Below are positions 7,441-63,011 of a DNA stretch of 64,000 nucleotides, in pieces (position 1 is the first letter of the stretch; each line of letters begins with the position of its first letter). The notes under the pieces were generated by a model, which was not told where the DNA came from, searched no databases, and worked only from the letters and a program-made list of their open reading frames with translations. The stretch is from a virus: IMG/VR virus record IMGVR_UViG_3300045988_151219, positions 1 to 64,000 of that record; one strand, given 5' to 3'. A program made the position numbers and the translations under genes.

Positions 7441-7461
7441 TGATTTTAGTCTCCTTTTATA

Positions 7462-7842: not shown

Positions 7843-7860
7843 TAAGCTATTCTCCTTTTA

Positions 7861-33047: not shown

Positions 33048-33575
33048 TTAAGTAACATTCTGAACATCTAAACGATATGCTCTGTCGTAAGACAAAGTCA
33101 TTGAAATTCTCTTGCGGTCTGATGAATCGTTAGACATTTCACCATAGTTTACAGCGGAGGGCCAAACACCTTCATACTTCCACTGGCGGATATATGTTCC
33201 GTCAGGACCACGCTGTGATAAAATCATGTCTCGTTTATATTGGTTTACCCAACCCATTTTACCCGTATTAGGGTCGTATACCTGGTTCTGCCACGCTTCA
33301 ATCTCTTTTTCAGTATCAACCAAAATAGCATCGTTTACTTCTAAAGTTCCGTCTGCGTATTCTGCTTGCCCTGCTACTTTAGCGTGGGAGTTTCCGAACG
33401 GTATGTCAACTACAGGAGTCGAACGGTCAGGCAAAGTCATTGAGTTCTGCAACATTGTGATGGATTCTGAAATGCCGTCAATCTGTATCTCAAACCAGTT
33501 CGTCATTTGTAACTGGTAATCTTTTCTTGAGCTTAGATGTCTGGCGTCATAATTCCTAACAGCTGAATCTGCCAC
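33048..33575 (-). CDS. tail tube protein (T4 gp19-like family)
   Basis: 175 aa, GTG start with GAGAGG SD. FEIQIDGISESITMLQNSMTLPDRS...FGNSHAKVAGQAEYADGTLEVND...WPSAVNYGEMSNDSS...ISMTLSYDRAY fits the contractile-tail tube family pattern. Confidence 0.8.
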   Translation of the reverse strand: MADSAVRNYDARHLSSRKDYQLQMTNWFEIQIDGISESITMLQNSMTLPDRSTPVVDIPFGNSHAKVAGQAEYADGTLEVNDAILVDTEKEIEAWQNQVYDPNTGKMGWVNQYKRDMILSQRGPDGTYIRQWKYEGVWPSAVNYGEMSNDSSDRKRISMTLSYDRAYRLDVQNVT

Positions 33576-33614
33576 TATATAAACCTCTCTTTCTCTTATT
33601 ATAGAAACTCTATA

Positions 33615-34806
33615 TTATAAGTGCCACTTAAAATTTCCACACCTATATACTTTAATATATTTAAGGCTCTCCATAATGAAATCTTCTTTATTTGCATGAG
33701 TTAAAGATTCTTCATAGAGTTTTGGATATTTCTTTTTCAGATATTTTAATTGTGCTTTTTCCCTCGGTACAAATAAATACCCTTTATAATCTGTCCAGTA
33801 GTAACTAAGTGAATTAGACACTAACTTGAATCCCGCTTTAGAATATATTCCTCCGGTGAAAAAGTCATTATCTGAAAATGTGACAATATTTTTTTGAGTT
33901 ACTTAAATATATATGATATTTTAAAAGTTTTTGAAATCCGCCAATTACTATATACCCTTGTTTTACTACGTACCTTATTATCTCAAATTCTTCTTTGTCT
34001 TTAGAATATCTGGATTTAGAAAATGAAATTAAAGACATTAATTCTCCCTGGAAATAAAGTCCGTAATTTATACTTTGATAATGTGAACTTCCCTGCAAGT
34101 GATATAAGTCTGTAAACTCTTTAACTTCTTTATAAGATAATTTAACTATTGTACATTTTCTGGCATATATTTTAGTTTTTGGAATAAAAATATTTTCTAT
34201 AAGCTGCTTTATCTTCTTCCGTCTATTTCTCCAATCTACGTCAAAAATAGAAAGCAATCTTATTCCTTTTTCTCGACACTGTAAATATTTCTTATAATGA
34301 TAGTCTTTAGGCTTTGCTGGATACCTGTGAAAATAACTGCCGTTACACTCAATAGCTATTTTGTATTTTGGTATATAGAAATCAAGCCCTCTTTGATTTC
34401 TGATAAAATCTTTAGTATCTAAATATTTTAATAGTGTATTATATATTTCATTTTCAAATTTAGAGTTTGAAAAATTTAAATTATTAATATTTTCCTCTTT
34501 TAACGGAATGATTATATGTTCTTCTCTCCTATTTTCTCTTTTCTTTCTAACAGACGACTCCCTGCCACATTTCTGGCATCCCCCTAATTGTTCTTGTGTA
34601 GACATCTTAATGACATGTCCTACCATCTTATAGTAAATCCCATGTTTACAGCAGAAAAACGGTAACTTCTCTGTTACCGTAATCTCCGCTTTTCTTGCTC
34701 TTTCTTTATCTTCTTCTCTTGCTAACAGGTCTATAAACCACTCCGGAAACCTTTTATTTCTATTCCTTGTCTTCCAGCTTAGTTTAACTCTTTCTTCATT
34801 TGTCAT
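33615..34806 (-). pseudogene. free-standing homing-endonuclease-like gene, split by a frameshift in an A7 run
   Basis: ORFs 33868..34806 and 33615..33821 are one gene. It has a Zn-finger-like N-terminus (CCKHG...CQKCG) and a PD-(D/E)xK-like core (DFYIPKYKIAIECNGSYFH). The next segment YHLQG...YGLYFQGELMSLISF...VIGGFQKLLKY then continues in another frame as NIVTFSDNDFFTGGIYSKAGFKLVSNSLSYYW. The frames switch at the T7 run on the plus strand, 33889..33895. Confidence 0.7.
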
Positions 34807-34985
34807 AGCTTATAACTATTGCAAAACCTTCATGAATATGTTAAAATAAATTAACTTAATTAATTAGTCTGGTCAGTTACGGTCAGATTCAAAGTGTGTA
34901 AGCGGCAACTTAAACACTTTATCTACAGCCTTTATGGCTGTTTTTTATTGTATACATAAATTAATCCAATAATATAACTTCGACT

Positions 34986-35228
34986 TCAAATAAGATGAAT
35001 ATATTCCGCCTTATCAATGTAATCATCAATAAGTGCATTATCTTCTTCTGATGAATACCCAGGTATCCTACTTCTGAAAGGTGTTTGTTCAATTTCAGTT
35101 ACATCAGTTAATGTATTATCAAAATACGCAACAGCTGCTTTTTTTGCTACATCTTCATTAGCGACACGATATACATATACTACCGGTTTCTTAAGAAGTT
35201 TTACCACATAAGATTTATAAACTTTCAT
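34986..35228 (-). CDS. hypothetical protein
   Basis: 80-aa ORF with no motif recognised. Confidence 0.5.
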   Translation of the reverse strand: MKVYKSYVVKLLKKPVVYVYRVANEDVAKKAAVAYFDNTLTDVTEIEQTPFRSRIPGYSSEEDNALIDDYIDKAEYIHLI

Positions 35229-35258
35229 TCTTTGTCACCCTAACCTAAATACATATTT

Positions 35259-35891
35259 TTATAGCTGTTGTAAAACAAAATATTTAGAAGCATTATTAAC
35301 TCTTTCAAAGGCATTATCTACATAACCTTGATAAGAACATTTGCCATTATAACGTTCATCCACTTCTTTAAAAGAATCGACTACTTTTGTTTCTAACTTA
35401 TATACATCTGGATTAGCTATTCCATAATTCAAAGGTGCGTAAACTTCATGTGCTACAATTAAAGAAATTGTTACTGAATGAAATTCTTTAAGATATTTAC
35501 TAAACTCTTTCATAGACATTTTACCGTTTTCATATTTTTTAGCCGCTGTCTCAAAAGCTTTTGCAAATTCAGGAGTATATAAAGTTATATTTTCCCCAGG
35601 TTCCATCTTACTTAACACTTCTTTTTTCTTTGCTTTATCAGATACTATTCCAGCCTGCTTTATAAGCCTGAAATTATCTAAATGTACTTTTTCAACTTTT
35701 GCAATATTAAAATAAATTTTGTCAGCATACTTCTTAAATTCAGTCAGGTCTTTACTCTCATTAGATACTGATGAAGTAACTTGATTAGATTTAGTATGTT
35801 TTACATCCGCTACTGTTTCATCTCCACCACAAGCTTTAACTAAACAAAGAATTAAAATTACTCCAATAAGATACTTCATCATTTTACTCAT
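35259..35891 (-). CDS. putative lipoprotein, paralogous to 37486..38112
   Basis: Start refined to MSKMMKYLIGVILILCLVKACGGDE, a signal peptide with a lipobox-like LVKAC. C-terminal VAHEVYAPLNYGIANPDVYK aligns with VVIYEVYDKINYSVTNATDYK of 37486..38112. Confidence 0.6.
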   Translation of the reverse strand: MSKMMKYLIGVILILCLVKACGGDETVADVKHTKSNQVTSSVSNESKDLTEFKKYADKIYFNIAKVEKVHLDNFRLIKQAGIVSDKAKKKEVLSKMEPGENITLYTPEFAKAFETAAKKYENGKMSMKEFSKYLKEFHSVTISLIVAHEVYAPLNYGIANPDVYKLETKVVDSFKEVDERYNGKCSYQGYVDNAFERVNNASKYFVLQQL

Positions 35892-35964
35892 TTTAAGCTT
35901 CCCTTTCTTTGACAGATTAACTGGTATAAACAATAGAATCTAAATTATATTTGTCAGCATACTC

Positions 35965-36552
35965 CTAAATAACATCTTTATATTCATTAGTGAACAATTT
36001 ATAGTCTTTAGAATATTCTTCAAAATCTTCAAAAATATCATAATCTTCATTACAAGGTCTTTCTTTAAGAGATTTAAACCTCTCTTTTAGAGTGATGTCG
36101 TCTAACTTAAAAAGTACGGGACAAACCTTGAAAGGCAAATAATCACTCAAGGAATAGTCAATCTTTTCCTTGATTTCTTTTTCTCTCTTACTGTTATTAT
36201 AAATCCGGTCATAAACTAAAGATGAAAATAACCACCTGTCAATAATACCAAAATTATCCAAACTATTTAAAACCTTGTACGGATAGTCAATACATTTCAA
36301 AACTTTCAAGACCATAGAAACATATTTATATCTTTCATTAAAATCAGGTTCCAGTTTATTCCACCCATAACTAATAATATCTACTTTAGTTAAAGCTTTA
36401 CCTACAAGCTTCTCTTTAACGATTTCTGCGGTCTTAGTCTTTCCTACTCCATCAAAGCCTTCAAATATAAATACAGTTGAATTTCTTTTGTTTGTACTTT
36501 TCATTAAATCAGCTAATTCATTAATTTCTTTTACATAACTTGTTGTCCTCAC
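35965..36552 (-). CDS. thymidylate-kinase-like P-loop nucleotide kinase
   Basis: 195 aa, GTG start with AAAGGAG SD. P-loop IFEGFDGVGKTKTAE is the classic dTMP kinase signature (E-G-x-D-G-x-G-K-T). Confidence 0.6.
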   Translation of the reverse strand: MRTTSYVKEINELADLMKSTNKRNSTVFIFEGFDGVGKTKTAEIVKEKLVGKALTKVDIISYGWNKLEPDFNERYKYVSMVLKVLKCIDYPYKVLNSLDNFGIIDRWLFSSLVYDRIYNNSKREKEIKEKIDYSLSDYLPFKVCPVLFKLDDITLKERFKSLKERPCNEDYDIFEDFEEYSKDYKLFTNEYKDVI

Positions 36553-36572
36553 TTTTATATTCTCCTTTAACT

Positions 36573-36950
36573 TTACAAATTTAACGTTTCTTTTAAATAA
36601 GGTTGTACATAATTATCTCCATAATTATCCTCATATTCATCTATTCGATAATACAAAGAGTAAATTTCTTTATCAAACGGACATTCTGAAATGTCAAATC
36701 CTTTTTCTTTAATAAATACTTCCCAATTTTTAGTTTTATCCTCTTGATAAATGTTTATCCATTCTTTCTCAAGCATTCCCCATAAGTCACAATCTTGATA
36801 GTGTTTATATTGTCGAACTTCCTCTATGTCAATAAGACGGTTTTTCATAGCCTCTATTTCTTTCAAATCTCGGCTTATCATGACTATTGTAGTTTCTTCT
36901 ATTTCTTCACTAAAACCATTTTCATAACTCTCTGTAAGTACATAATACAT
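36573..36950 (-). CDS. hypothetical acidic protein
   Basis: 125-aa ORF with no motif recognised. Confidence 0.55.
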   Translation of the reverse strand: MYYVLTESYENGFSEEIEETTIVMISRDLKEIEAMKNRLIDIEEVRQYKHYQDCDLWGMLEKEWINIYQEDKTKNWEVFIKEKGFDISECPFDKEIYSLYYRIDEYEDNYGDNYVQPYLKETLNL

Positions 36951-36972
36951 AACATTTCCTCCTTTACAATAA

Positions 36973-37161
36973 TTAAAGATGTTTCTTAATAATCGTAAAA
37001 ATACTAAATATCAACAAAATAAACCAAATAAATAAAATCCAAAAGTAAAGCGTGTTGTCTGTTAAAAGACTGGCAAAAACATAAGCAGGAGCTACAACGA
37101 AAATTAAATTCACAGCTACTGTAAGAACCAAAACAGTAATTAAATACCAAATTAATTTCAT
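36973..37161 (-). CDS. small two-helix membrane protein
   Basis: Start refined to MKLIWYLITVLVLTVAVNLIFVVAPAYVFASLL...WILFIWFILLIFSIFTII, preceded by TAAGGAGGAAATC. Confidence 0.6.
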   Translation of the reverse strand: MKLIWYLITVLVLTVAVNLIFVVAPAYVFASLLTDNTLYFWILFIWFILLIFSIFTIIKKHL

Positions 37162-37171
37162 GATTTCCTCC

Positions 37172-37300
37172 TTAGTTATTAAAAATTGCCAACACAATAA
37201 ACGTACCGATAAGCGTGAAAATTAAATGAATTAGAGGATGTGGCGAAATCGGCTTTACCAAAATTGCTACAATAAATGCAATGACTGCAAACAGAAACAT
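37172..37300 (-). CDS. possible 42-aa membrane micro-protein
   Basis: My translation gives MFLFAVIAFIVAILVKPISPHPLIHLIFTLIGTFIVLAIFNN, with AGAGAGGAGC upstream. It lies downstream of the consensus promoter at 37349..37377. Confidence 0.45.
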   Translation of the reverse strand: MFLFAVIAFIVAILVKPISPHPLIHLIFTLIGTFIVLAIFNN

Positions 37301-37348
37301 GATTGTTGCTCCTCTCTTTTAAAAATATAATTTGTTTTCTATGTCTAT

Positions 37349-37377
37349 ATTATAAAAGAGATTGTAAAATATGTCAA
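37349..37377 (-). promoter_or_regulatory. sigma-70 consensus promoter
   Basis: The minus strand reads TTGACA (37377..37372), a 17-nt spacer, then TATAAT (37354..37349). Both hexamers are perfect. It sits about 50 nt upstream of the ATG at 37300. Confidence 0.55.
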
Positions 37378-37390
37378 GTGCTTTTATAAA

Positions 37391-37420
37391 AAATTCTACA
37401 TAAAATTATATGTAGAATTT
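37391..37420 (-). terminator. intrinsic terminator after 37486..38112
   Basis: A 12-bp perfect inverted repeat, AAATTCTACATA-taattt-TATGTAGAATTT on the minus strand, followed by TTTATAAAAG. Confidence 0.55.
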
Positions 37421-37485
37421 AAATACTTTATACTATTAACTTACCATGACAGATTTTCTCCTTTAGATAGTATGTAAATACAAGA

Positions 37486-38112
37486 TTAATTTTTGATAGA
37501 TTGTGTGATTTCATCAGTAGCTTCTTTTACAGCAGTTTCATAATCTAAATCATAACCTAACTCTTCTGCTCTTTCTTTCATAACTCTTACTATAATACCA
37601 TTTTCTTTATAATCAGTAGCGTTAGTAACAGAATAGTTTATTTTATCATAAACTTCATATATTACTACAACGTTTATCATATATTCCTGGAACGCCTGAA
37701 TAGCTAAATCATAATCTTCCTGGTCAAGTCTTCCAGCATCAAAAGCCTGTTGCACATTACTTATAAAAGCAAAAGGATATGTAGAATAAATCTGTTTAGA
37801 TGAATAAGGCTTTAAGTCTTCCAGTATCTTCCTTTTCTCTTTCTTATGTATATTAGGCTTTCCTGCTCTGTCAATTACTCTATAATTTTTTAAAGCTCTT
37901 TCTTTAGCTATCTTTTTCTCTTGTTCAGAAGCTTTCGCATATTCCATAAGCAATGCCGTTGTGTGGTCACGCTCCTGTATTAAAATGCTCTGCGGAGGTT
38001 CCGGTTTATGTTGTACTCTTAAGAACTCTCCTACATAAAGTAAGGTAGCAGTAATAGCTAAGGCTACTATAATTAATGAAATGATATACTTTCTTTTTTC
38101 TAACTGCTGCAT
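37486..38112 (-). CDS. membrane-anchored protein, paralogous to lipoprotein 35259..35891
   Basis: 208 aa. N-terminal anchor YIISLIIVALAITATLLYV, AGGAAGGAG SD and a shared C-terminal domain. Confidence 0.7.
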   Translation of the reverse strand: MQQLEKRKYIISLIIVALAITATLLYVGEFLRVQHKPEPPQSILIQERDHTTALLMEYAKASEQEKKIAKERALKNYRVIDRAGKPNIHKKEKRKILEDLKPYSSKQIYSTYPFAFISNVQQAFDAGRLDQEDYDLAIQAFQEYMINVVVIYEVYDKINYSVTNATDYKENGIIVRVMKERAEELGYDLDYETAVKEATDEITQSIKN

Positions 38113-38129
38113 TAAGGCTCCTTCCTAAG

Positions 38130-38267
38130 TCAAAATAAAAAATATAAAAATATGATTAACATTATTATACTATATTTTAAAATTTTCCTCTCTTCTATAA
38201 AACAAGAAAGGAAAAAGATAATAATTATTGCAGTTGATATATAAACAGAAATAACCGCATTTACCAT
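38130..38267 (-). CDS. possible 45-aa hydrophobic micro-protein
   Basis: My translation gives MVNAVISVYISTAIIIIFFLSCFIEERKILKYSIIMLIIFLYFLF. Its ATG overlaps the stop of the preceding micro-ORF (AAATGGTAA), and its stop lies 17 nt before the start of 37486..38112. Confidence 0.4.
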   Translation of the reverse strand: MVNAVISVYISTAIIIIFFLSCFIEERKILKYSIIMLIIFLYFLF

Positions 38268-38332
38268 TTCTTATGATTCCTAATTTCATCTTCTATAATA
38301 AATAAAAGTATTAAACTAATTATTATACCCAT
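38261..38332 (-). CDS. possible 23-aa micro-protein
   Basis: MGIIISLILLFIIEDEIRNHKKW with AGAGGT 6 nt upstream. Confidence 0.3.
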   Translation of the reverse strand: MGIIISLILLFIIEDEIRNHKKW

Positions 38333-38342
38333 TTATATACCT

Positions 38343-38441
38343 CTAACTTTTAAAGTAGTTAGCTAAACTAAAAATAATACTACATAAAGTAAATGCAAAG
38401 ATTGTCCAAAATATAGACTCAATAAGCCACTCTTTATACAT
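38343..38441 (-). CDS. possible 32-aa hydrophobic micro-protein
   Basis: MYKEWLIESIFWTIFAFTLCSIIFSLANYFKS with GAGAGGT upstream. Confidence 0.4.
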   Translation of the reverse strand: MYKEWLIESIFWTIFAFTLCSIIFSLANYFKS

Positions 38442-38728
38442 TATATTTCTACCTCTCTTTATTAACTCTTAGAGAAACAACGATAAAAATATATAATAGC
38501 TTAATTAAGTCCAGGAATTGGCTATTTTTAAAACTTATATATAACTAAGTCTAAGAAACTATAAATTTTTAGACTTAATATAGAAACAACCCTTACTAAA
38601 GACCACCATTAGCTTAATCTCAAAGACGATTTCTTATATTGCCATACAAGACCCTTAGCAGAAGTCTTTAAGGTAAGTTTCCCCTACAGTATTTTTAAAA
38701 GCCTTAAAAACGACTATACGAAATAAAG

Positions 38729-38965
38729 CTACCTAAAGCTACTTGATATGTCATTGTCATAGCTTAAATATTTTAAAAGCACACAACACTCATCTTTAAT
38801 ATAAGCTTCTTCTATATCATGAAAAACTTGGTCACTACGTTCTTTTGTTTTAAAGGTTAAAGTGTATGTTCTTCTACAGCTTGAAACATAAATAGCATTA
38901 TTACTATCATCATAAAAAACATAATCTACAGTAGGAATAATTAGATTTTTAAAAATAATAGACAT
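38729..38965 (-). CDS. hypothetical protein
   Basis: 78-aa ORF, 4 nt after the beta-helix gene. Confidence 0.5.
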   Translation of the reverse strand: MSIIFKNLIIPTVDYVFYDDSNNAIYVSSCRRTYTLTFKTKERSDQVFHDIEEAYIKDECCVLLKYLSYDNDISSSFR

Positions 38966-38969
38966 AAAT

Positions 38970-39780
38970 TTACCTCTCTTCCAAAAAACTACTTATTATA
39001 TTATATGAACTTCTTTTTAAATCTTCTTCACTATTTATTTCTTTATCTCCAAAAAGCTCATATCTACCCTCAAGGTCTATATCACCACCTATACTCACCC
39101 TATCAAAAACTTTAATGTTCCCTTGCAGTTTAGCCCTATCATAAACTTTGGAACTTCCGTATAAATTAACTCCGTGAAGTAATTGAGATTCTCCAAAAAC
39201 TTGAGCATCATCATACAGTTTTACAGAATTAAATATAAAAGCATCACCATATACTCTACATCTGTTTTTGATTTCAGATAAATCTTTCACTTTAGCATTT
39301 CCACAAACTCTGGCAAATCCTGATATAAACGACTCTGAAACTAATGCATTTCCGTAAACTTTTGCACTCTCTCTTATGTTACTTTTATATTCAACTCTTG
39401 CATTTTCAAATATTTTTGAATAATCTCTAATAGTAGAATTAGTTACTACAGCGTTATCATAAACTTTTGCATTACTATAAATTTCAGAATTTCCTCTTAT
39501 TTCAGCATTACCATAGACACGAACCTTTCCTTTAAGAACACCCATATACTTTTGCAAAATCACAAATTCTGGAATCATCTTTCACCTTAGCATTTTGATA
39601 TACCATTGCATGGTCATAAACCCAACATGTTCCTTCTTGTGATAAATTCTCCTCACTTTCTACAAATCCTCCTAAGGCTCCCCTCTGAACATAAGGTAAT
39701 GATTTTAAGGCTCTTATTCTATATAAAATATGACCATCTATAACTTTTGTCTCGTCAGTTAATTCGTATTTTCTCCCCAT
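38970..39780 (-). CDS. beta-helix repeat protein read in two overlapping frames (possible frameshift or two genes)
   Basis: ORF 39532..39780 (YELTDETKVIDGHILYRIRAL...GGFVESEENLSQEGTCWVYDHAMVYQNAKVKDDSRI.DFAKVYG) continues seamlessly as repeat units in ORF 38970..39578 (KGKVRVYGNAEIRGNSEIYSNAKVYDNAVV...). The repeats have the form [VI]-[YF]-[GDS]-N-A-x-[VI]. Confidence 0.6.
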
Positions 39781-39818
39781 ATCTATTCTCCAATCTTACT
39801 ATATTATACTACAAGTTA

Positions 39819-39848
39819 AAAAGAGTTACTGCTTAAAGTAACTCTTTT
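39819..39848 (-). terminator. 12-bp hairpin after 39863..41071
   Basis: The minus strand reads AAAAGAGTTACT-ttaagc-AGTAACTCTTTT then TAAC. TATAAT lies 9 nt further downstream. Confidence 0.55.
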
Positions 39849-39862
39849 CTTTAAATCTCTTA

Positions 39863-41071
39863 TTAGCCTAACAGTTTCTTATGTATTTTTACAGACTTGT
39901 TACGTTTCTTGTTAGCTTGAGAAGTGTGGGCTTTCTTGCGTGCTTTTACTAAAGCCATCTTCTGTGCTGAACTTAAACGTTTCTTTCTGGTAGGAATAGT
40001 CTTCTTAACGACTGCCTTATCTCTTACTACTTTTACAGTCTTTTCTTCAATCTTCTCGTCATGGTCATCATCTTCTTCTAAATCTTCTCCGTCTTCTAAT
40101 TCAGTCTCTAAGTCTTCCGGTTCTCCCTCATCTTTAGGTTCTTCCGACATCTTAGCAAAATCATCAGGTTCTTCTCCATCGTCATTTTCCGGCTCTTCGT
40201 CAGAATCAAAATAGTTTGACACCAACGCATCAAAATCAGCCTGATCAGCAAATTCATTAAGTGCTTCTGTTAAAGCGTTAGCAAAAGATGAGCCGTCATA
40301 AAGTGAAGATTGTACATCTAAGTCTTTTGTTACGTCACCTAACATACTGTTTGAGATATTGATTGTTCCTGTAAAGGAATCTGTATTTGCCTGGATATCT
40401 GCTTTTACTTTTACTTCATCAGCATATTCAGTGGTTTTTTCATCAGGGTCTACAACACCCAGCAGTAATGAAAATTCAGTTGAAGCTGTTCCTACTTTAG
40501 TATCATCCAAAGTATTTTCAAATACAATAGGAAGCGGAGAAATACCTAAGAAAATTACATTACCCTCTGTCTCGTGTGAAAGCTTTCCTAAGAAAGTTGA
40601 ACCAATTACAGCGTTAGGAATAGAATCAGAAAGAACTTCTGTATCCCCTTCCGCTTCAAATACTTTCAAAAGCTTTTTGGAAGCATAAGAAGTAAGAGAC
40701 TTAACAAGACCGTCTTTTACCTGCTGTTTGAGCCATGCTAAAGCTTTGCCTGCTCCCTGCTGTTTCATGATATAAAGCATTTTTTCTAAGATAGAATCAA
40801 TATCATCTGATTCATAGAAATAGTCTTTACCATTAATAGTTACTACTATCTGTTTAGGGTCTTTAGCTTTCTTAATATTGAGGTCAAGAGATTCCGTGAT
40901 TTCCGGATTTAATTCTTCCCCTTCTTCTACAGTGTCATCATCTTCTAATACTTCCGGCGGGTCTTTAGGCTCTTCTGCCTGGAAATCCACATCTTCATTA
41001 ATCTTCTTGAGCTTTTTCTTCATCGGTTCTGTGGATTCATTGAGTCTCTGAAAAATTGATTTTACAGACAT
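39863..41071 (-). CDS. candidate packaged internal protein: shared N-terminal tag, acidic body, basic C-terminal tail
   Basis: 402 aa. N-terminus MSVKSIFQRLNES. Long D/E-rich tracts. C-terminal KKRLSSAQKMALVKARKKAHTSQANKKRNKSVKIHKK. Confidence 0.65.
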   Translation of the reverse strand: MSVKSIFQRLNESTEPMKKKLKKINEDVDFQAEEPKDPPEVLEDDDTVEEGEELNPEITESLDLNIKKAKDPKQIVVTINGKDYFYESDDIDSILEKMLYIMKQQGAGKALAWLKQQVKDGLVKSLTSYASKKLLKVFEAEGDTEVLSDSIPNAVIGSTFLGKLSHETEGNVIFLGISPLPIVFENTLDDTKVGTASTEFSLLLGVVDPDEKTTEYADEVKVKADIQANTDSFTGTINISNSMLGDVTKDLDVQSSLYDGSSFANALTEALNEFADQADFDALVSNYFDSDEEPENDDGEEPDDFAKMSEEPKDEGEPEDLETELEDGEDLEEDDDHDEKIEEKTVKVVRDKAVVKKTIPTRKKRLSSAQKMALVKARKKAHTSQANKKRNKSVKIHKKLLG

Positions 41072-41080
41072 AATTAACTC

Positions 41081-41650
41081 CTATTCTTCATCTTTAATAA
41101 TTTTGTTTGGATTTAAATAAGCTACTCCCTCTTTGTCGACTTCAACAAAGAAAGGCTTTCCATCATTTAAAGCTTTCATCAATTTATTTGAATCAGCTTT
41201 GTCACCAATTATATAATCGAAAATTGAACTTCTGTCTAATGATAAGTTCTGCTCACCATTAAAGGCTATCTGTATAGTCTTGTTATCTACATCAACCAAA
41301 AATCCTAAGTCTTTGTAAATCTGCATATCGTAATCTATTAGAGATTCTTTTATGCCACTGCCTATAACTTCCTCTGAATCATTTTTTAAATCTAAAGATA
41401 AGTCATATGCTAAATCTTTAACTAATCTCGGATTAGCTTCACTAAGATAGCTATATAAGTCTTCTGGTGAATTATATTCATGCAGAAAACGATAAAATAG
41501 AGAATTGGCTAATTCATCAGTCAGATGTATTCCTTTTTCGTTTATATATAAATATTCTTTATTAGAGTCTAATTCATCAAAGGCAGACTCTTTTAAAAAT
41601 CTGATTTTCCTTGACTCGTTTAACCCTTGAATGATTGACTTTAAAGACAT
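41081..41650 (-). CDS. candidate packaged internal protein with shared N-terminal tag
   Basis: 189 aa. N-terminus MSLKSIIQGLNES. Confidence 0.65.
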   Translation of the reverse strand: MSLKSIIQGLNESRKIRFLKESAFDELDSNKEYLYINEKGIHLTDELANSLFYRFLHEYNSPEDLYSYLSEANPRLVKDLAYDLSLDLKNDSEEVIGSGIKESLIDYDMQIYKDLGFLVDVDNKTIQIAFNGEQNLSLDRSSIFDYIIGDKADSNKLMKALNDGKPFFVEVDKEGVAYLNPNKIIKDEE

Positions 41651-41659
41651 ATTTACCTC

Positions 41660-42046
41660 TTATAAGTATTCTTTAATAAGGTCTTCGGTTATTTCTCCGT
41701 CATCACCTAAACCATGTACAAACATAACATAGTCTTCATCGTCATAGATTTCAAAATATCCGTTTTCATCTAAGACCCAGGTAGTTCCTTCCGGAATGGT
41801 AATAAAATTCTTCTGATCTCCATCAGCCCATTTCATAATAGCATAAATTTTATTAAGTTCATCAGGCTTAACAAAATTCATTATGCAGTCTTCCGCTGTA
41901 AGCTTAGTTTCATATTTCTTTTTTAATTTGTATTCTTTTCCTACTTCTAATGAACCCATGTTAATTGTTACTTCAACCTGTTCATCGTTTTCGCTTTCAT
42001 TCATTCTTGCTTCGTTCAAGTTACGAATAATTGAATTTACAGCCAT
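41660..42046 (-). CDS. candidate packaged internal protein with shared N-terminal tag
   Basis: 128 aa. N-terminus MAVNSIIRNLNEA. Confidence 0.65.
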   Translation of the reverse strand: MAVNSIIRNLNEARMNESENDEQVEVTINMGSLEVGKEYKLKKKYETKLTAEDCIMNFVKPDELNKIYAIMKWADGDQKNFITIPEGTTWVLDENGYFEIYDDEDYVMFVHGLGDDGEITEDLIKEYL

Positions 42047-42073: not shown

Positions 42074-42107
42074 TTAGTAAGAGGGAGATTATGTTCCCTC
42101 TTACTAA
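42074..42107 (-). terminator. 13-bp hairpin after the sheath gene
   Basis: TTAGTAAGAGGGA-gattatgt-TCCCTCTTACTAA. There is no clean U-run on either side, so terminator function is uncertain. Confidence 0.4.
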
Positions 42108-42119
42108 GTATATATAATC

Positions 42120-43949
42120 TTATTTTTCTCCGTCTAATTTGATATTCTTTGTAGCGTCTTCTTCTGAATAAGAAGTGATTCCATCTTTAGAAAGTACATA
42201 AGAAATATCAATATATTCAGCCGGTTTTATAATAGCAACTTTGATAAGTCCAGGCATCCGCCCATTATCAATATCTTCCTGTGATACTGTAGTTTCATCC
42301 ATCTTAAGGATATAATCATATATACCCCTGGATTCTTTTACCGCTCTGAAATAGGGGTCAAGTCTTAATTTCCATCTATTCCACGTATTCAATTCGTTCT
42401 GGTCAAACAAGAAATCAAGGGATTCTCTTAAAATGACTTTACGGAAATAGTTAGAAAGACGTCTTGCGTTGATATAACGTAAAGATTTATTAGTAGCGTA
42501 TTCGTCATAAACTTTAGAAGTACGAACACCCATTAAGCATAAGCCTTTTCCTCTAACATCTACAACGGAGTTTATATTTGTATCCGTGGAGTAAAGCATA
42601 TCCCGCTGTTCTTTTGTAGTAGAGTATTCAAGTCCATCAAGACCTACTACTTTACCACGGTTTACACCTGCCGGAGAAATCCATTCATGAGATACATTGT
42701 CAGAAGCTGTAAAGGTTGCTGCAATATATGGTGTAATATCTACTAAATCAATCTGTCCGGTAATAGCATTTCTAATATATCCGTTCGGATAAGTTAAGAA
42801 AATGTGTGAGTTATCAAATTTGTATCCTGTATCAACAAATTCTCCGTAAGCTCGTACATAATCTCTTGCCTGTTCAGGAGTAAGTCCGAAAGGAAGTGAC
42901 GGCAAATAAACTAAATCTTTACGATAGTTTATAATCTTTTCCGCTTCTTCATATACTTTCCTGTCAAACCATCCAGGAACTACTAAAGTAGCATAGTCAA
43001 CACGGTCCGGGTCATATAAGGATTTCATCCCTGAATTACCCTCGCCTATAACATCATCTACTGTAACGTCTAATCCTGAATTGCCGTCAGCTAATACAGT
43101 GTCAAGGTCAGCAGCATCAGCTTTAGTATATCCATCTTTTACTATACAAGTTACATAAGAAGAGAATCTGTTAATGATATTTCCAATAAAAGATATCTCT
43201 TTCGGGTCTATACTGCAACGATAGGTTTCTACCATATCCCCATCTTTATTAGCCAAAGTATACACTATTTTAGTTGAGTCATCAGTAGAAAGCTTAAGTG
43301 AAATCTTGTAGTCATTATAGTATGACGTCAAGTCTTTCGTATTAAATTTAATCCACGGCTCAACTCCTGCCGGCTTCTTATATTTATAATCAGCTTTTGC
43401 AGTTACAGTTCCTGTTGGAGCCGTGTCAAAGTTGATTTCTACTTTACCATTTACATAATTTACAGTGCCTTCGTAACCTATCTTATCACAAAGAAGTTTA
43501 CCTGCCTGGTTATCTTTCAGAACAATTTCTTTTGTGTCAAAAGTTACAAAAACAGTAGTAGAACCTTTAAGAAGAGGTTTATTGCTAAGTGTTGCACTAA
43601 ATTTTTTACCTTCAGTATCTTTTGTAAGCGTAAGTGCTTCGTCAGCTACAAACTTATACGGTGAAAAAGTAGAAGCTACACTTGCATTTTTACTAATTAC
43701 ACGCTGAAACCATACTTCTTTGTTAGTAGTTAGACCTACAAGCATAGCTCGTACAGCACTGTTATTAGCTATAGGATTACCAAATAAATTAATTGCCTGT
43801 TTGACTGAACTTACTAAAGTTAATTCCAGTGGACCCTTAATAGCTACACCCACAATTGCAGTAGCGTTAGAGATTTTGACTACGGAATCGCCCTGTTCTT
43901 CAATCTCTGATACAGACACTCTGGGAGCTACGCCATTATATTCTGCCAT
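42120..43949 (-). CDS. tail sheath protein
   Basis: 609 aa. N-terminal GVAPRVSVSEIEE...ATAIVGVAIKGP and C-terminal WISPAGVNRGKVVGLDGLEY...RDMLYSTDTNINSVVDVRGKGLCLMGVRTS match the sheath family pattern. Confidence 0.85.
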   Translation of the reverse strand: MAEYNGVAPRVSVSEIEEQGDSVVKISNATAIVGVAIKGPLELTLVSSVKQAINLFGNPIANNSAVRAMLVGLTTNKEVWFQRVISKNASVASTFSPYKFVADEALTLTKDTEGKKFSATLSNKPLLKGSTTVFVTFDTKEIVLKDNQAGKLLCDKIGYEGTVNYVNGKVEINFDTAPTGTVTAKADYKYKKPAGVEPWIKFNTKDLTSYYNDYKISLKLSTDDSTKIVYTLANKDGDMVETYRCSIDPKEISFIGNIINRFSSYVTCIVKDGYTKADAADLDTVLADGNSGLDVTVDDVIGEGNSGMKSLYDPDRVDYATLVVPGWFDRKVYEEAEKIINYRKDLVYLPSLPFGLTPEQARDYVRAYGEFVDTGYKFDNSHIFLTYPNGYIRNAITGQIDLVDITPYIAATFTASDNVSHEWISPAGVNRGKVVGLDGLEYSTTKEQRDMLYSTDTNINSVVDVRGKGLCLMGVRTSKVYDEYATNKSLRYINARRLSNYFRKVILRESLDFLFDQNELNTWNRWKLRLDPYFRAVKESRGIYDYILKMDETTVSQEDIDNGRMPGLIKVAIIKPAEYIDISYVLSKDGITSYSEEDATKNIKLDGEK

Positions 43950-47082: not shown

Positions 47083-48558
47083 TTAATGTCCGTCAGACGC
47101 CTGTTTTTCATAGAAAATTGTACCCCGAACATAAAGATTCGGTTCAATCATTCTCTTAGCGTAAGACGTTGCATATCCACGGCGACCCATAAAGTCGTCC
47201 AACATTACCAGTTCAGTGTTGTAGAACATCATGTAGGGACTATATACAAACCCTGTATCAATCAGCGTATCGCCTTTGTAACCTACCAGGTAATCGTTTT
47301 CACCTAAGAACGGGTCAAAGTATACGTCTACCTGTCCATCAAGTTTACCTGCAAAATACGGACCAGCTGCCGGAGCTGCTGAACCCTGAAAGCGGGGAGC
47401 CCCTACCATGTTTAAGAGGTCCTGTGCTTTCTTTCCGCAAACTACCCAATTACCGCGGACACGTTTTGTACGGTTGTAAATTGCGTTACACTGTACATGA
47501 ATTTCATTTACGAAAGTCTGAGCCCATTCAGACTGCGAAATGTTAGCTGCAAAAGCGTTGTAGTAGTTATTGAATGAAGAAACAGCTTTAGTACCGTTCC
47601 AAATAGAATTAATGATATCACCGTCAGTTTCATGTTTCAGTTCATTAGCAGCTGCAACAAGCAGTGATTCAGCAATATCAATACCCTGTGCCATCTGGAT
47701 ATCATAAGCTGCATCCAGTGAGAACAGTGAACGGAGCTTTCTCGGCTTAGCAGTTACAAACGTATCAGAAATCTGGATATTGATTTCCGGTACTGCTGCC
47801 GGAGCATATTCTAAATCCTGTTCATAAGAAATAGATACATCGTGAGGACCAGCAACAATGCCCGCAAGTTCTACTACGCCGGTAGCATAGTCAACAGTAC
47901 CTGTAATAGTTCCGCCAGTTGCTTCTGCTAATACTCCATCAGAAGAGTCTTCAACAACTGCATCACCTACGTGGATTAATACAGTTCCAGGAACTACCGG
48001 TACATTTTCAATAGACGTTTTATAAGTAGCAGTAGCTGTCGGTTCATGTGCTTCATCTTCAACTACTTCGCCAGTATAGTTACGTCCATTGTAACCGGCA
48101 GTTTCAAACTGCCCAAATAAAGTATCGCCTTTTTTATTGCGACCTCTGTTTGTACCACGGACATATTTCAGGAAGAAAATCTGCCCCTGTTTCTGCTGCA
48201 AAGGCTGTACAGATACAAGCTGTTCAGCAATGATGTTCGGAAAGACTCCCGTGATCACATCGAAAGCCTGGCGTTTCAGATTCAGTGTATTAACGTTACC
48301 TGAATTATTATATTTGTAAGACTGTGTACCGCTGATTCCGAAAGTCGGGTCAGCAGCTTCGTAAATGGGATGACCCATAGTCTTGCAGTTATACGCCTGG
48401 TCTACTGATTCAAGAAGCATTCCCAAACGAATCTTTTCTTCGTCAGAAAATGAACGACCTTTTGAACGACGGTCTGCTTCTACACAGTCCATACGTCCTT
48501 TGTACTTTTTAAGCAGATATTCACTCTGCTGATATAATTTACTCTGCCATGATTCCAT
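47083..48558 (-). CDS. major capsid protein
   Basis: 491 aa, immediately after the protease-scaffold gene and followed by a strong hairpin. Visibly GC-richer codon usage than the neighbours. A gp23-like N-terminal propeptide has a candidate cleavage site at IYE/AADP. Confidence 0.8.
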   Translation of the reverse strand: MESWQSKLYQQSEYLLKKYKGRMDCVEADRRSKGRSFSDEEKIRLGMLLESVDQAYNCKTMGHPIYEAADPTFGISGTQSYKYNNSGNVNTLNLKRQAFDVITGVFPNIIAEQLVSVQPLQQKQGQIFFLKYVRGTNRGRNKKGDTLFGQFETAGYNGRNYTGEVVEDEAHEPTATATYKTSIENVPVVPGTVLIHVGDAVVEDSSDGVLAEATGGTITGTVDYATGVVELAGIVAGPHDVSISYEQDLEYAPAAVPEINIQISDTFVTAKPRKLRSLFSLDAAYDIQMAQGIDIAESLLVAAANELKHETDGDIINSIWNGTKAVSSFNNYYNAFAANISQSEWAQTFVNEIHVQCNAIYNRTKRVRGNWVVCGKKAQDLLNMVGAPRFQGSAAPAAGPYFAGKLDGQVDVYFDPFLGENDYLVGYKGDTLIDTGFVYSPYMMFYNTELVMLDDFMGRRGYATSYAKRMIEPNLYVRGTIFYEKQASDGH

Positions 48559-48572: not shown

Positions 48573-49961
48573 TTAGTTTATCTGGGTAAGAAAGCTATTT
48601 AACCTTGTATGATTTTCGTTAATTGAATTGATTGTTTCTACCTTTTGAGGCTTATTAACTATTGACTCATTAACTACTGTCGTTTGGTAATATGCTTTCG
48701 CCCCATAGTCAAAATTTGATTTCTTTTTGACGCTCTTCTTTATTTTAGGCTTTGAGATAACAGGCTTTACAGACTCTACTATCTTTTCCTCTTTTTTAGA
48801 AAGCTGCGTCTTTAAATTCTTTATTTGCTTATTTAAAAGCTTTTTGGTTTCGGTAGATTCTTCTATCTTAGAAAAATAAGTGGCTTTTAACATAGAATTT
48901 GATTCCTGTAAAAAGTCTATCTCTTTACTAAGACTATCAATAGATTCTTCTAACTTCATGTTAGAAGCTATAGCAACATCAACTTCTTTAGATTTCTCGA
49001 CAAGTGCCAGCTTACTTTTAGAGATTTCTTTATTAAAGTGACTTGCCTGGCTGTCTATAGATTCTTTTAAATCTTTTATATCTTTACGATATGAAGAAAC
49101 TTGGTTATTTAGAGTCTGGATGTTGTCTGTAAGTGTAGAGATTTTCGCTCTAAGTGTAGAAATTTCTTCTTCACTTTCAAGTAATTTAGACTCTGTTATA
49201 ATATTTTCTTCAAAAAGATTCTCGTAAGACTCGTCTAAAATCTCTTTGTCAGAAGTGCTGTTTTTGATTTTAGCGTCTATCTTACTTTTAATAGAATCAT
49301 ATATATTAGAATCCATAGATTCAAATATCGGTTTTAATGATTTAATATCCGATGAAGTCGCTTCATCAAGATATTTATTCAATGTGTCAATAAATGTAGC
49401 ATTAGACGATTCATTGACCGGAGAAAGTCTTGAAGTAGAAAAGCCAGGATTAGGTACAAAGTCAAATCCTTTAAAAACATAGTTATCTTCATCAGGATAA
49501 CTTATACCATCTCTAACGGTCATTGACCCTCTGGCTCTTGCAGAAATACCCATTTTACTACCATACTTTATCATGGTATATACCATTCTTCCTGCTGGTG
49601 TATTGAGTATGTCGGCTCTTCCCCACAAGACTTTTTTAGCTTCATCCCACCATAATTTAATTACATTATGGGATACTTTATTTAAATCAATATCAAACCG
49701 TTCTTCCGGATGTGATAATTCTCCGAATAATGTACGGTTTTCCATTAATTCAATAGTGGTTGGATAGTTACGTATCTTATTCTCTACTAAAGAAAAAGTG
49801 TAACCCCGCATATTGTTATTTATTTCATCAACTGAAATAAACGGACCCTCAACGGAACAAAGCACAGCATCGTTAGGTACGTTACTTTCAGTAGATTCAC
49901 ATATTTTTAATTGATGTACTTGTATATTGCTTAAGTATTGTAATTCTTTATCTGTAGGCAA
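48573..49961 (-). CDS. prohead core protease (T4 gp21 / S77-like) fused to a coiled-coil scaffold region
   Basis: 462 aa. FGELSHPEE...IKLWWDEAKKVLWGRADIL...GSKMGISARARGS parallels T4 gp21 ALGELNHP...DMWWKGNDVYGRARVI...GVSSRGLGS. The C-terminal half is heptad-rich (LRAKISTLTDNIQTLNNQVSSYRKDIKDLKESI). Confidence 0.8.
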   Translation of the reverse strand: MPTDKELQYLSNIQVHQLKICESTESNVPNDAVLCSVEGPFISVDEINNNMRGYTFSLVENKIRNYPTTIELMENRTLFGELSHPEERFDIDLNKVSHNVIKLWWDEAKKVLWGRADILNTPAGRMVYTMIKYGSKMGISARARGSMTVRDGISYPDEDNYVFKGFDFVPNPGFSTSRLSPVNESSNATFIDTLNKYLDEATSSDIKSLKPIFESMDSNIYDSIKSKIDAKIKNSTSDKEILDESYENLFEENIITESKLLESEEEISTLRAKISTLTDNIQTLNNQVSSYRKDIKDLKESIDSQASHFNKEISKSKLALVEKSKEVDVAIASNMKLEESIDSLSKEIDFLQESNSMLKATYFSKIEESTETKKLLNKQIKNLKTQLSKKEEKIVESVKPVISKPKIKKSVKKKSNFDYGAKAYYQTTVVNESIVNKPQKVETINSINENHTRLNSFLTQIN

Positions 49962-52230: not shown

Positions 52231-52235
52231 AAACT

Positions 52236-52568
52236 TTATTCCTCATAAGAAAATCCGATTCCGTTATATCTCGGTCGGCCTAAAGCTTCTATTGTGAGCT
52301 TATATAAATCTTTACTTCTAATCACTACTATATCAAAATCATATATTGTGTGATTAACATTCTGGCGATATTTAATTTTAAATCCGCCTGTAAATTTAGT
52401 GCTGTTATTTACATACCGCCCATCAGTCGCAATAGCAGGAACGAAATATTTCTCATAATCATTCCTGCTCACGTCTATAGAAATGATTTTATTACTGTCT
52501 TCTACTTCTTCTAAGTCAGTACGATAATCGATTGAATTAAGAAAAGATATAAGTACCTCTTTTAACAT
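52236..52568 (-). CDS. hypothetical protein
   Basis: 110-aa ORF between the AAA and vWA genes, with 1-5 nt spacers. Confidence 0.55.
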   Translation of the reverse strand: MLKEVLISFLNSIDYRTDLEEVEDSNKIISIDVSRNDYEKYFVPAIATDGRYVNNSTKFTGGFKIKYRQNVNHTIYDFDIVVIRSKDLYKLTIEALGRPRYNGIGFSYEE

Positions 52569-52569
52569 C

Positions 52570-55500: not shown

Positions 55501-55683
55501 TGGACGAACCTGATATATAGTTGGTGATTTTATTGAGCTTACTACTGATGAAGTAAACTCATCTGATAGATTGTTAAATTGTGAGGCTTTAGCTGTCAGT
55601 AAAAGATTATTTGTATCAAAGTCTACTACTTTGTTTGATATAACGGGACATTTTTCTAAGAAAGGTAAATAATCTTGTACCAC
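52570..55683 (-). CDS. MoxR/dynein-type (AAA_5-like) ATPase with two AAA modules
   Basis: 1037 aa. Module 1 has Walker A LLLGQSGVAKSAMV, then LVDIRLAFLSRLDLQG and Walker B VLFLDELMRC. Module 2 has ETASSMGKSS, LIDVNLAEQDRLDLMG and Walker B IIHFDEMNRL. Confidence 0.8.
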   Translation of the reverse strand: MVQDYLPFLEKCPVISNKVVDFDTNNLLLTAKASQFNNLSDEFTSSVVSSIKSPTIYQVRPFNFYVMTEPDFVVYSIKKHMEKIKAMIVEVDYNDVLRNSYVDTAESGTTVVYSDIDGQEIGGVSDSYYLDFCLNHKDSLTDDHPFNNYINESIQRKPMKLMTIDEANLKDLFNKVDDDEFKNSVGNVESGTPTYVSRLDVYFQNDKPQNRIPLLLGQSGVAKSAMVKKLADQYGYRLVDIRLAFLSRLDLQGLSKVNNTEDLEDLSEIVANSAPASFMIECLDSYVDFCRKSIPIIEEKIETAEDYDKERLTKILNKFKEGAKPPVLFLDELMRCYPPIRQAFTKILSDKEFMGHPMKYAKIVAASNYAVGKEEDLQSIYQVGISDDAAFNDRFEPIPILPEDVIKPWKAWADEKSEGDRTNIHPVVREYLEKFPTQYYDFSLVEKVYNDTGDTDKAGETSYPNFRTWEMASNYLYQHPDKVIKKDIFMGLLGEGGENFYDYLTKLGYKEAELSDDVMSDFIEQGIDSNTPILLETASSMGKSSRLKAIANKRKALLIDVNLAEQDRLDLMGIPTTVSVARYILGGLNLNESELNELPKLSEFNLPEKTTIKACDGELYYKLRKAADVGQEVIIHFDEMNRLSDTTLMSAILEVISDHRFRGIKFNKDRVKVVGSCNVGEAYSDVKPLDPAFSARFSVLKKPEFDELDLKSFQKYMKDSEFAPEVQKYFNDLAPEDAIAFMNTVEKRSLECSSSSTRAWEDLSTFIKNSKSTSMFRGVVLFPDEKTQRQVADLISGEGKDTDFVDVYNTVKKYIHKWAGARGDYSVTLGGEQVDSQSVAETLQELVASHTSDSIKEDDSLYRTFQRLAVIARQIDIEVMRDRKEAFTYIVGSDASSKFGQFYNNVSDREIEHYDLEDCVSIDILNKFLEQEISIIPVIEKRYSVVNSLFKQYIDHFDNKDPEYDREVVYAFLNSLPSNEYKVNMLYTGKDSTYFRKFINKAFDTADLLVELMDSVGVVVSDEIKAKVAANINKGAK

Positions 55684-57283: not shown

Positions 57284-57319
57284 TGGCAGTACCCTTCTAC
57301 AAACAGTTTATATTTTATA

Positions 57320-58404: not shown

Positions 58405-58405
58405 G

Positions 58406-60442: not shown

Positions 60443-60443
60443 T

Positions 60444-61460: not shown

Positions 61461-61464
61461 TTAT

Positions 61465-62588: not shown

Positions 62589-63011
62589 TTAAGTTCCTTT
62601 TACAAATACTGAAACGTCTTTCTTTGAGATTAAAAATGATTGGTCTTCTTCTACTTCAAGACTGTAAATAAAATCATCATAAAAATAATTTGACTTCTTT
62701 ATCAAAACTTTCTGATATATTATACTTTTCTTTCCGTGAGGACTTAATCCAAAAAATTGTTTGGGAAGCTCTTTTAAAGCTTCTATACTATTATTATACG
62801 ATGAAATAAAAAATAGCTGGTTTTCAGTAGCGTAAATTACTTCTTTCCCTATTATCAATTTACCCACTTTATCGTATGAGATAGTCTTCCCGATAACCTC
62901 TCTAACTCTATTTCTATGCGTGTAAACATAGTCTCCTATATTTACTAAATAGATAGGCAGTCTCCCTCTTGATGTTTTAACTAAAGTAGAAGCTGAAAAA
63001 CAGTCTCTCAT
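62589..63011 (-). CDS. free-standing degenerate Hint (mini-intein-like) domain protein
   Basis: 140 aa. MRD-CFSASTLVKTSRGRLPIYLVNIGDYVYT is intein block A with Cys1. ATENQLFF has Gln in place of the block-B His. C-terminal FIYSLEVEEDQSFLISKKDVSVFVKGT matches the blocks F/G pattern but lacks the His-Asn terminus. Confidence 0.65.
   Translation of the reverse strand: MRDCFSASTLVKTSRGRLPIYLVNIGDYVYTHRNRVREVIGKTISYDKVGKLIIGKEVIYATENQLFFISSYNNSIEALKELPKQFFGLSPHGKKSIIYQKVLIKKSNYFYDDFIYSLEVEEDQSFLISKKDVSVFVKGT

Follow-up and report, generated by a model that had tools for sequence, protein, structure and literature searches.

In bacteriophage T4, the internal proteins termed IPI, IPII and IPIII and the protein Alt begin with a capsid-targeting sequence (CTS; MKTYQEFIAE) that is processed by the prohead protease gp21. 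Such sequences are 10-19 residues long, and T4 gp21 cuts after L/I-x-E (PMC9026906 sections 2.5-2.6; PMC3012670). The giant phages SPN3US, phiKZ and 201phi2-1 also have head proteins, the portal included, that are cut after Glu by a gp21-related protease, and the first 15 residues, which contain AXE-12, are identical in the SPN3US paralogues gp53 and gp54 (PMC5694885). In phage P1, an N-terminal signal of at most 30 residues on DarB suffices to load a heterologous protein into the capsid (PMC9024508). Here we describe, for an uncultured phage, a 64,000-nucleotide stretch of the IMG/VR virus record IMGVR_UViG_3300045988_151219 (hereafter the window), in which three adjacent genes, g128, g189 and g402, start with a common 12-residue tag that ends in L-N-E. 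With moderate confidence, we propose that this tag is a cleavable prohead-targeting propeptide, ancestral to the family of P1 gp21 (a different protein from the T4 protease of that number), and that it was copied onto neighboring cargo genes.

The T4 CTS is the functionally closest system, and the tag is likely to be a protease-cleaved targeting propeptide of this type, judging from several sequence features. As in T4, a short N-terminal peptide occurs on otherwise unrelated proteins and terminates in [L/I]-x-E, after which comes a small residue (L-N-E↓A, S and S at residues 10-13, where arrows mark candidate cleavage positions). The phage also encodes a protease of the S77 family, its gp23-type capsid protein has a propeptide of ~65 residues, and the number of tagged genes varies between relatives as it does in T4 (PMC9026906, PMC3012670, PMC8442874). 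An earlier note on this DNA had observed that L-N-E before A or S fits the T4 cleavage rule, and the published [LI]-x-E specificity agrees with it (PMC9026906 section 2.5). Unlike the T4 system, the tag has no sequence similarity to the CTS or to internal proteins (there is no internal-protein match in Pfam, PHROG or NCBIfam), and its hydrophobic register is h.h..hh..h rather than the h..h..hh of the T4 CTS. The tag would also differ in being inherited from a conserved family, the tagged genes lie between sheath and tube, and the portal is apparently tagged in the window phage, whereas T4 gp20 is not processed (PMC5694885). In the giant phages, propeptides are mostly longer than 100 residues with the motif A/S/G-x-E, and the proteins that share an N-terminus are paralogues rather than unrelated proteins. 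The DarB signal is alike by description; it is not described in PMC9024508 as protease-cleaved or as common to several proteins.

The three tags read MAVNSIIRNLNE↓A in g128, MSLKSIIQGLNE↓S in g189 and MSVKSIFQRLNE↓S in g402. They follow the pattern M-x-Φ-x-S-I-Φ-x-x-L-N-E, with hydrophobic residues (Φ or h) at positions 3, 6, 7 and 10. Open reading frames (ORFs), a six-frame search and BLASTP confirm that, as the earlier note had described, three adjacent genes after the sheath gene have this N-terminus in common and are divergent in the remainder. Both M[AS][VL].SI[IF]..LNE and the looser SI[IFLVM]..LNE match only three sites in a six-frame regular-expression search of the window, each of them an ORF start, so that the scan for further tagged ORFs proposed in that note returns, within the window, only the three known genes. 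No similarity is detectable among the mature parts after residue 13 (permissive BLASTP, best E 0.13). By comparison, L10, N11, E12 and a small residue 13 are invariant in 14-15 natural variants of g128 and g189 and in seven of g402. The hydrophobic pattern h.h..hh..h followed by N-E is common to all four tags compared, as would fit an amphipathic helix. The possibility of a signal peptide or lipobox was considered and rejected, for the tag has too little hydrophobicity and no Cys follows it. Back-translated DNA patterns of the tag gave one match in IMG/VR and five in JGI metagenomes; these were treated as chance because all lie inside unrelated ORFs or in ORFs of 12-59 aa.

A DNA alignment of the three starts shows that the tag codons differ synonymously at five of 12 positions while the amino acids are kept. 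In the order g128, g189 and g402, Leu is encoded by TTG/TTA/CTC, Asn by AAC/AAC/AAT, Glu by GAA/GAG/GAA and Ile by ATT/ATC/ATT. Conservation is therefore at the level of the peptide and does not reflect a recent DNA copy. These data bear on the idea that the common start is a leftover of tandem duplication or of gene conversion at 5' ends, or else an mRNA element for translation initiation, and that the peptide itself is functionless. Adjacent genes with a common architecture from ribosome-binding site (RBS) to start codon, as found here, are in its favor. It is nevertheless very improbable, given the synonymous differences, the complete divergence of the rest of the proteins and the persistence of the peptide pattern across family members less than 50% identical and in a 54%-identical relative (locus L005).

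The gp21-type prohead protease reported in the earlier note is borne out by matches to PF03420 and phrog_207 and by an alignment with T4 gp21 (BLASTP E 8e-11). In this alignment GELSHP and GISAR of the window protein pair with GELNHP (H85) and GVSSR (S140) of T4 gp21, and we take H85 and S140 to be the catalytic residues of the T4 enzyme. Just past the protease domain, VNE↓S (residues 182-185) aligns with ITE↓S near the C-terminus of T4 gp21. The protein continues into a C-terminal coiled-coil extension of ~280 aa that contains 11 further Φ-x-E-[GSA] sites and has a scaffold-like look. The capsid protein has a predicted maturation site at I65-Y66-E67↓A68 and an earlier CVE↓A at residues 25-28. 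Its IYE↓A lies ~38 residues before FPNIIA, and T4 gp23 has LTE↓A at the same spacing before IPNLIA. Among cultured phages, Thornevirus SP-15, Listeria phage LIS04 and Bacillus phage HSE3 come closest, at a capsid identity of only ~34%. Their corresponding sites are MFE↓T, LLE↓T and MTE↓S, respectively, and that of the distant relative L013 is LNE↓A; because the MAFFT columns near these sites are ragged, the correspondence was read by eye from the conserved motif.

The motif is enriched in this phage, and its position is selective. Φ-N-E-[GSA] occurs 13 times in the window proteome compared with 4.2±2.1 times in shuffles, and a hydrophobic residue precedes 13 of the 17 occurrences of NE[GSA]. 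Within the first 35 residues it is found in only three of 107 window ORFs of at least 60 aa, which are the tagged genes. The same scan of the 10 kb upstream of the window, present in a second locus from the same phage (L020), finds the portal only. The portal starts there with MDIIKSINE↓SLKT, a shortened form of the tag, from a GTG codon with the RBS AAAGGAG. In the complete HSE3 genome, two of 197 ORFs have the motif, and they encode the capsid protein (VNE↓A) and the g402 homologue (INE↓S). The motif at N-termini therefore marks head-module proteins in two lineages. Of the likeness to T4 internal proteins that the earlier note had put forward, the part concerning the tag is supported, with the S77 protease, the capsid IYE↓A, the Φ-N-E of homologues and the portal SINE↓S all pointing to a CTS-type element; the part concerning the proteins is not, since they are acidic and have no homology to internal proteins.

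The largest of the three proteins belongs to a widespread family. g402 has no Pfam or NCBIfam match, and its sole PHROG match is phrog_1053 (E 3.7e-20), for which the function is listed as unknown. P1 gp21 matches the same profile over its full length (E 6.3e-99), and a direct BLASTP comparison of g402 with P1 gp21 gives E 7e-13 over a C-terminal basic module. On the strength of these profile and pairwise matches, g402 is a genuine member of the P1 gp21/phrog_1053 family, with P1 gp21 as its prototype. Membership is limited to g402, as g128 and g189 have no phrog_1053 match. An exhaustive profile search recovers 424 family representatives at 50% clustering, 152 of them with E <= 1e-10, and all tested members match phrog_1053. 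The earlier note had inferred that the three proteins belong to a class that includes anti-restriction effectors. g402 is no lineage-specific effector, for it belongs to a conserved and widespread family, in which the tag appears to be ancestral, and the suggestion of injected anti-restriction effectors is probably wrong in emphasis for g402.

The N-terminal motif can be followed through the family. The C-terminal basic segment of g402 matches SP15_037, LIS04_64 and HSE3_gp066, which start with MRNEMTIVDKLIKKSAPSLNE↓G, MSKELSIVDKLISKKKNEGGLNE↓S and MKERLILERILNKRKSGESNINE↓S, respectively, and in these homologues from distant phages a hydrophobic N-terminal helix is retained, with Φ-N-E↓[GSA] after it. 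Among 93 representatives with a Met start and the core motif present, Φ-N-E-[GSA] occurs in the first 40 residues of 35 (38%) compared with 0.8% in shuffles, and Φ-x-E-[GSA] in 72 (77%) compared with 26%. Many representatives have starts that closely resemble the window tag, among them P0066 (MSVGAIISRLNE↓SSS), P0027 (MSLFSKLRKLNE↓SSE) and P0098 (..ILNNLNE↓SVE). In 54%-identical relatives (L005 and L015), the g402 orthologue starts with MSVKSIFKRLNE↓S, and a 180-aa gene in the position of g189, judged by eye to be its orthologue, has the tag MSVGSIIRNINE↓S. One tagged gene is present in SP-15, LIS04, HSE3 and L013, two in L005 and L015, and three in the window phage and its 89%-identical relative L006.

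Candidate sites in the family resemble the capsid maturation site of the same phage. The mature P1 capsid protein starts with SVAAEM after E120 (E120↓S121, Edman; PMC9024508). The sequence context of this cut is KAMLE↓SVAAEM, and the corresponding sites are AMFE↓S in D6 and AMLE↓S in JK004. P1 gp21 itself contains QLME↓S (residues 28-31), ILE↓G, ILE↓A, LIE↓A and, directly before AFKKVVRNG..., EMLTE↓A, while D6 gp47 contains AMLE↓S, AMME↓A and AMLE↓A-VRKKVVRDG. By this comparison of few lineages, the flavor of the candidate sites follows the capsid maturation site of each lineage, being AMLE↓S in P1-like phages and x-N-E↓[AGS] in L013 and HSE3.

g402 consists of the tag, acidic linkers, a central domain, an acidic tract and the C-terminal basic module, in this order. 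The central domain of ~230 aa is found only in its own clade according to the family alignment. The charge profile agrees with the very acidic tracts and basic C-terminal tail that the earlier note had pointed out in the largest protein. The acidic tracts reach a net charge of -12 to -14 per 30 residues, the last 42 residues have a net charge of +16, and the whole protein contains 90 acidic and 53 basic residues. Internal Φ-x-E-[GSA] sites recognized by eye are LNE↓S, ITE↓S, FYE↓S, VFE↓A and LTE↓A. The length of the acidic tracts (residues ~44-52 and ~291-335) is hypervariable, as seen in variants of 364 to 420 aa with at least 89% identity, and these tracts behave as expandable low-complexity spacers.

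Candidate sites at fixed distances bracket the basic module in this family. Its consensus is ..VVRDGKVVKK.V.TKKKRLS.AQKAALAKARKKAHT..ANK.R.KS..., and in family alignments g402 conforms to the pattern ..VVR.G..V......K[KR]L[ST]..QK.AL.KAR[KR]KAH...A...R.KS. A Φ-x-E lies 14-32 residues before the RLS..Q core in 85 of 97 instances, and exactly 21-22 residues before it in 74. This Glu is followed by A in 34 instances, by K in 24, by S in 10 and by R in 7. On the other side, of the 48 proteins that extend beyond the module, 35 show [Φ/G]-x-E-[GSA] at a distance of 39-53 residues from the start of the core, and in 27 this distance is 39-40. g402, P1 gp21 and D6 gp47 are among the members whose C-terminus falls at this downstream boundary. 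A DNA-binding peptide of ~59 aa is predicted to be excised from g402. An AlphaFold2 model of the module (pLDDT 89) has a β-hairpin and two helices. A profile search of the PDB with the module finds nothing below E 0.27, and Foldseek with the model finds nothing in the PDB and only the family's own members in BFVD. Every factual statement of the earlier note holds, and the P1 gene 21 link and the bracketed basic module are additions to it.

Many other members (L013 4333-5160 and the representatives P0010 and P0012-P0015) have two CxxC...CxxC zinc ribbons that flank the basic module. A conserved C-terminal motif, LLES.NAP.FV..AL..GK, is another feature of these proteins and is lacking in g402 and P1 gp21. 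A tblastn search of the phage collection with P0014, P0041 and the consensus module gave no match, probably as a result of low-complexity masking.

The comparison with P1 gp21 extends beyond the module. Both proteins have an N-terminal hydrophobic motif, an acidic body, a Φ-x-E followed directly by the C-terminal basic module and an end of the form ...K[KR]LG, and the window cassette occupies the same place as P1 gene 21, right after the sheath gene. P1, the carrier of the DarB signal, thus has a gp21-family gene as well. The differences are that the P1 gp21 N-terminus (MSKNFFQSGAFLG...) has no early x-N-E site, the first candidate being LME↓S, that no neighboring P1 genes carry a common tag, and that g402 has the extra central domain. 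The P1 protease is HK97-like by HHpred (PMC9024508), whereas the window phage has an S77 enzyme. The family of P1 gp21 has no T4 counterpart that we know of.

In the mechanism we propose, the amphipathic tag would dock freshly synthesized proteins onto the prohead core as it assembles. The docking partner would probably be the coiled-coil scaffold extension of the protease, or else the interior of the portal or capsid. Once the shell is assembled, the tag would be cut off after L-N-E by the Peptidase_S77 prohead protease. The tag would be ancestral to the P1-gp21/phrog_1053 family and would have been copied in this clade onto g189 and then onto g128. Tag capture of this kind would make neighboring ORFans into head cargo, much as the T4 internal-protein genes share one CTS, and mature g128 and g189 might then be either retained and ejected or degraded. 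g402 would be a self-neutralized precursor in which the acidic tracts neutralize the basic module. A second cut at I-E-E↓K344 may release the module, which would remain with the packaged DNA, the acidic fragments being expelled.

It is a more tentative suggestion, and one that we hold to be possible rather than probable, that the phrog_1053 family as a whole is an unrecognized class of prohead-protease substrates from which a protamine-like peptide of ~60 aa is excised, with the tag serving as a portable label for ORFans. Its members would be tag-targeted acidic precursors, and the DNA-binding peptide would stay with the genome and might be ejected with the DNA. More than 400 clusters at 50% identity make up the family, which occurs in phages of both Gram-negative and Gram-positive hosts.

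Several observations weigh against the proposed propeptide function. All three proteins are acidic (mature pI 4.2, 4.5 and 4.5), whereas T4 internal proteins are highly basic (PMC8442874), and the only basic stretch among them is confined to the last 59 residues of g402. At P1' the IEE↓K before this stretch has Lys, a residue that is not the most frequent one there in T4. As a short motif, Φ-x-E-[GSA] turns up often by chance (26% of shuffled 40-residue windows), the SP-15 and LIS04 portals have only the non-canonical N-terminal sites LLE↓V and LFE↓K, and the scan for further tags covered ~84 kb of a ~138-kb genome. The remaining points concern P1 gene 21. Its RefSeq note reads 'baseplate or tail tube', and a position between the sheath and tube genes in P1, D6 and the window hints at a tail role. 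P1 gp21 (ORF 56) is also absent from the list of P1 virion proteins identified by LC-MS/MS (PMC9024508, Table 1).

T4 core proteins are acidic. The charge of the three proteins therefore suits a scheme in which the tags are truly cleaved and the proteins form a scaffold or core like T4 gp22, gp67 and gp68 that would contribute to building or sizing the prohead and would be fragmented and expelled before packaging, with nothing injected and no effector involved. Several internal Φ-x-E-[GSA] sites in g189 and g402 and the spacer-like, hypervariable length of the acidic tracts point the same way, as does P1, where gp21 is undetected in virions and a separate scaffold protein has not been identified (PMC9024508). 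A scaffold does not, however, account well for a conserved basic module bounded by cleavage-like sites, which looks built to survive processing. The protease already has a long scaffold-like extension, and g128 and g189 are dispensable at the clade level (g128 is absent from L005 and L015), which would be odd for a core scaffold. We regard a purely scaffolding role as unlikely.

The position of the family gene raises the further alternative that the common N-terminus is a docking peptide for a tail or neck partner and that L-N-E is not a protease site at all. Gene 21 directly follows sheath gene 22 in P1 and D6, and the family gene follows the sheath gene in the window, L005, L006 and L015 as well, whereas it follows a gp13-like neck gene in SP-15, LIS04, HSE3 and L013. 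Such contexts, together with the RefSeq note, favor an assembly role of this kind. However, gp21 is missing from the P1 virion proteome table and is not among the ten baseplate proteins of a cryo-EM study (bioRxiv 10.1101/2025.07.21.665459), and the old P1 tail phenotype could reflect polarity on the downstream tube genes pmgG and bplB. Also against a tail or neck partner, the flavor of the motif tracks the capsid maturation site of each lineage, and the motif recurs on the window-phage portal and the HSE3 capsid protein. These considerations make a tail or neck function rather improbable. The absence of P1 gp21 from the virion proteome suggests that most of the precursor may leave the head. 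This absence is predicted by the cleavable-propeptide model because the acidic parts would be expelled and the K/R-dense peptide would be shredded by trypsin, and it fits a non-virion assembly factor equally well.

If the tag is a cleavable targeting propeptide, then cleavable head-targeting tags are not peculiar to T4-like phages, the same strategy is used in distant myovirus lineages, and new cargo genes could gain a tag from a conserved core gene. This explanation gives a testable function to the P1 gene 21 family, which is widespread and unannotated and whose P1 member has so far had only the genetic assignment quoted above. It also nominates g128 and g189 as candidate capsid-delivered factors. 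The 12-residue tag, with its predicted rule Φ-N-E↓[GSA], is a candidate for engineered protein delivery by phages of low-GC hosts, and the cultured relatives P1, D6, HSE3, SP-15 and LIS04 make the predictions checkable.

g128 and g189 are clade-restricted ORFans. Among 5.8 billion proteins, only ~99%-identical homologues of g128 and a single homologue of g189 (98% identical) were found, and neither protein has a match in Pfam, PHROG or NCBIfam. Searches of PDB sequences with g128, g189 and g402 give nothing below E 0.38. g128 (pI 4.3) has a second site, MNE↓S, at residues 15-18. g189 (pI 4.5) has LKE↓S at residues 19-22 and, by eye, LSE↓A and IKE↓S farther on; an AlphaFold2 model made from its sequence alone was too poor to use (pLDDT 38).

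Together, the three genes make up a discrete cassette, closed by a hairpin directly after g402 (Table 1). A TATAAT-like element comes after this hairpin. The hairpin upstream of g128 resembles a terminator or attenuator, and the RBS AAGGAG comes after it. Every gene in the window is on the minus strand.

Table 1. Positions of the tagged cassette and of head, tail and hairpin features in the window
Feature	Position	Strand	Description
Hairpin after g402	39818-39849	-	13 bp plus T-run, directly after the g402 stop codon; -14.5 kcal/mol, z = -3.7
g402	39863-41071	-	402 aa; tag residues 1-12, nt 41036-41071
Basic module of g402	39866-40042	-	Residues 344-402, KTVKVVRDK...KIHKKLLG; preceded by I341-E342-E343↓K344
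g189	41081-41650	-	189 aa; tag residues 1-12, nt 41615-41650
g128	41660-42046	-	128 aa; tag residues 1-12, nt 42011-42046
Hairpin between sheath gene and g128	42074-42107	-	13 bp; -19.8 kcal/mol, z = -6.5
Tail sheath gene	42120-43949	-	Phage_sheath_1C, phrog_23; immediately upstream of the tagged cassette
gp23-type major capsid protein	47083-48558	-	PF07068, E 2.4e-52
Prohead protease	48573-49961	-	Peptidase_S77 PF03420, E 6.9e-13; phrog_207, E 6e-40; domain ~residues 36-181
T4-type portal gene, 3' part	63301-64000	-	5' end beyond the window; complete in L020

Near-identical or identical contigs of ~138-147 kb are present in ENA and Logan assemblies. A megablast search of 50,697 phage records with the locus gave no match, the genome is not among the INPHARED records, and a search of IMG/VR for related loci with the capsid protein found none; the tag-pattern scan of IMG/VR did not recover the genome either.

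The region downstream of the cassette differs between relatives. In L005 and L015, the sheath gene, the 180-aa tagged gene and the g402 orthologue are followed directly by the tail tube gene. In the window, the tagged cassette is separated from the tail tube gene (33048-33575) by an insert of ~6 kb of small genes (33600-39800, minus strand), which include membrane-like proteins and a thymidylate-kinase-like gene (35965-36552). Within this insert, overlapping ORFs of 82 and 202 aa (38970-39780, minus strand) have YdcK β-solenoid and bactofilin-like repeats. They are a disrupted form of a single 331-aa gene in L006, with residues 83-140 missing and the frame shifted.

Several further genes lie near the protease and portal. 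Directly upstream of the protease, 49999-55683 (minus strand) encodes a MoxR-like AAA+ ATPase (AAA_5) of 1037 aa and a vWA protein of 743 aa with a long low-complexity linker rich in S, G, Q and N. A vWA-like C-terminus precedes the protease in the distant relative L013 too, and its pairing with the head module may be conserved. Between the genes for the portal and the MoxR-like ATPase are five tandem genes encoding 334, 344, 333, 338 and 368 aa (56279-62571, minus strand). These five are paralogous, four being 34-39% identical (E 1e-38 to 1e-54) and the fifth weakly related; one was examined and had no PHROG match. These proteins could be further head-internal proteins.

An intein that splits the portal gene was considered and rejected, as the portal is a single 542-aa ORF in L020. 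A free-standing 140-aa ORF at 62589-63011 (minus strand) starts with MRDCFSASTLVKTSRG... and has a putative resemblance to the N-terminal splicing block of Hint domains and inteins. Immediately upstream of the portal, ~6 kb beyond position 64000, L020 contains a 1405-aa ORF (4152-8369) with an Intein_splicing match and a faint LAGLIDADG match, which is probably an intein-containing large terminase. Finally, two radical-SAM genes (352 and 328 aa; CxxxCxxC) are located at 9618-12271 (minus strand) within the tail-fiber and baseplate region; their Pfam Radical_SAM assignment is taken from an identical contig (L026).

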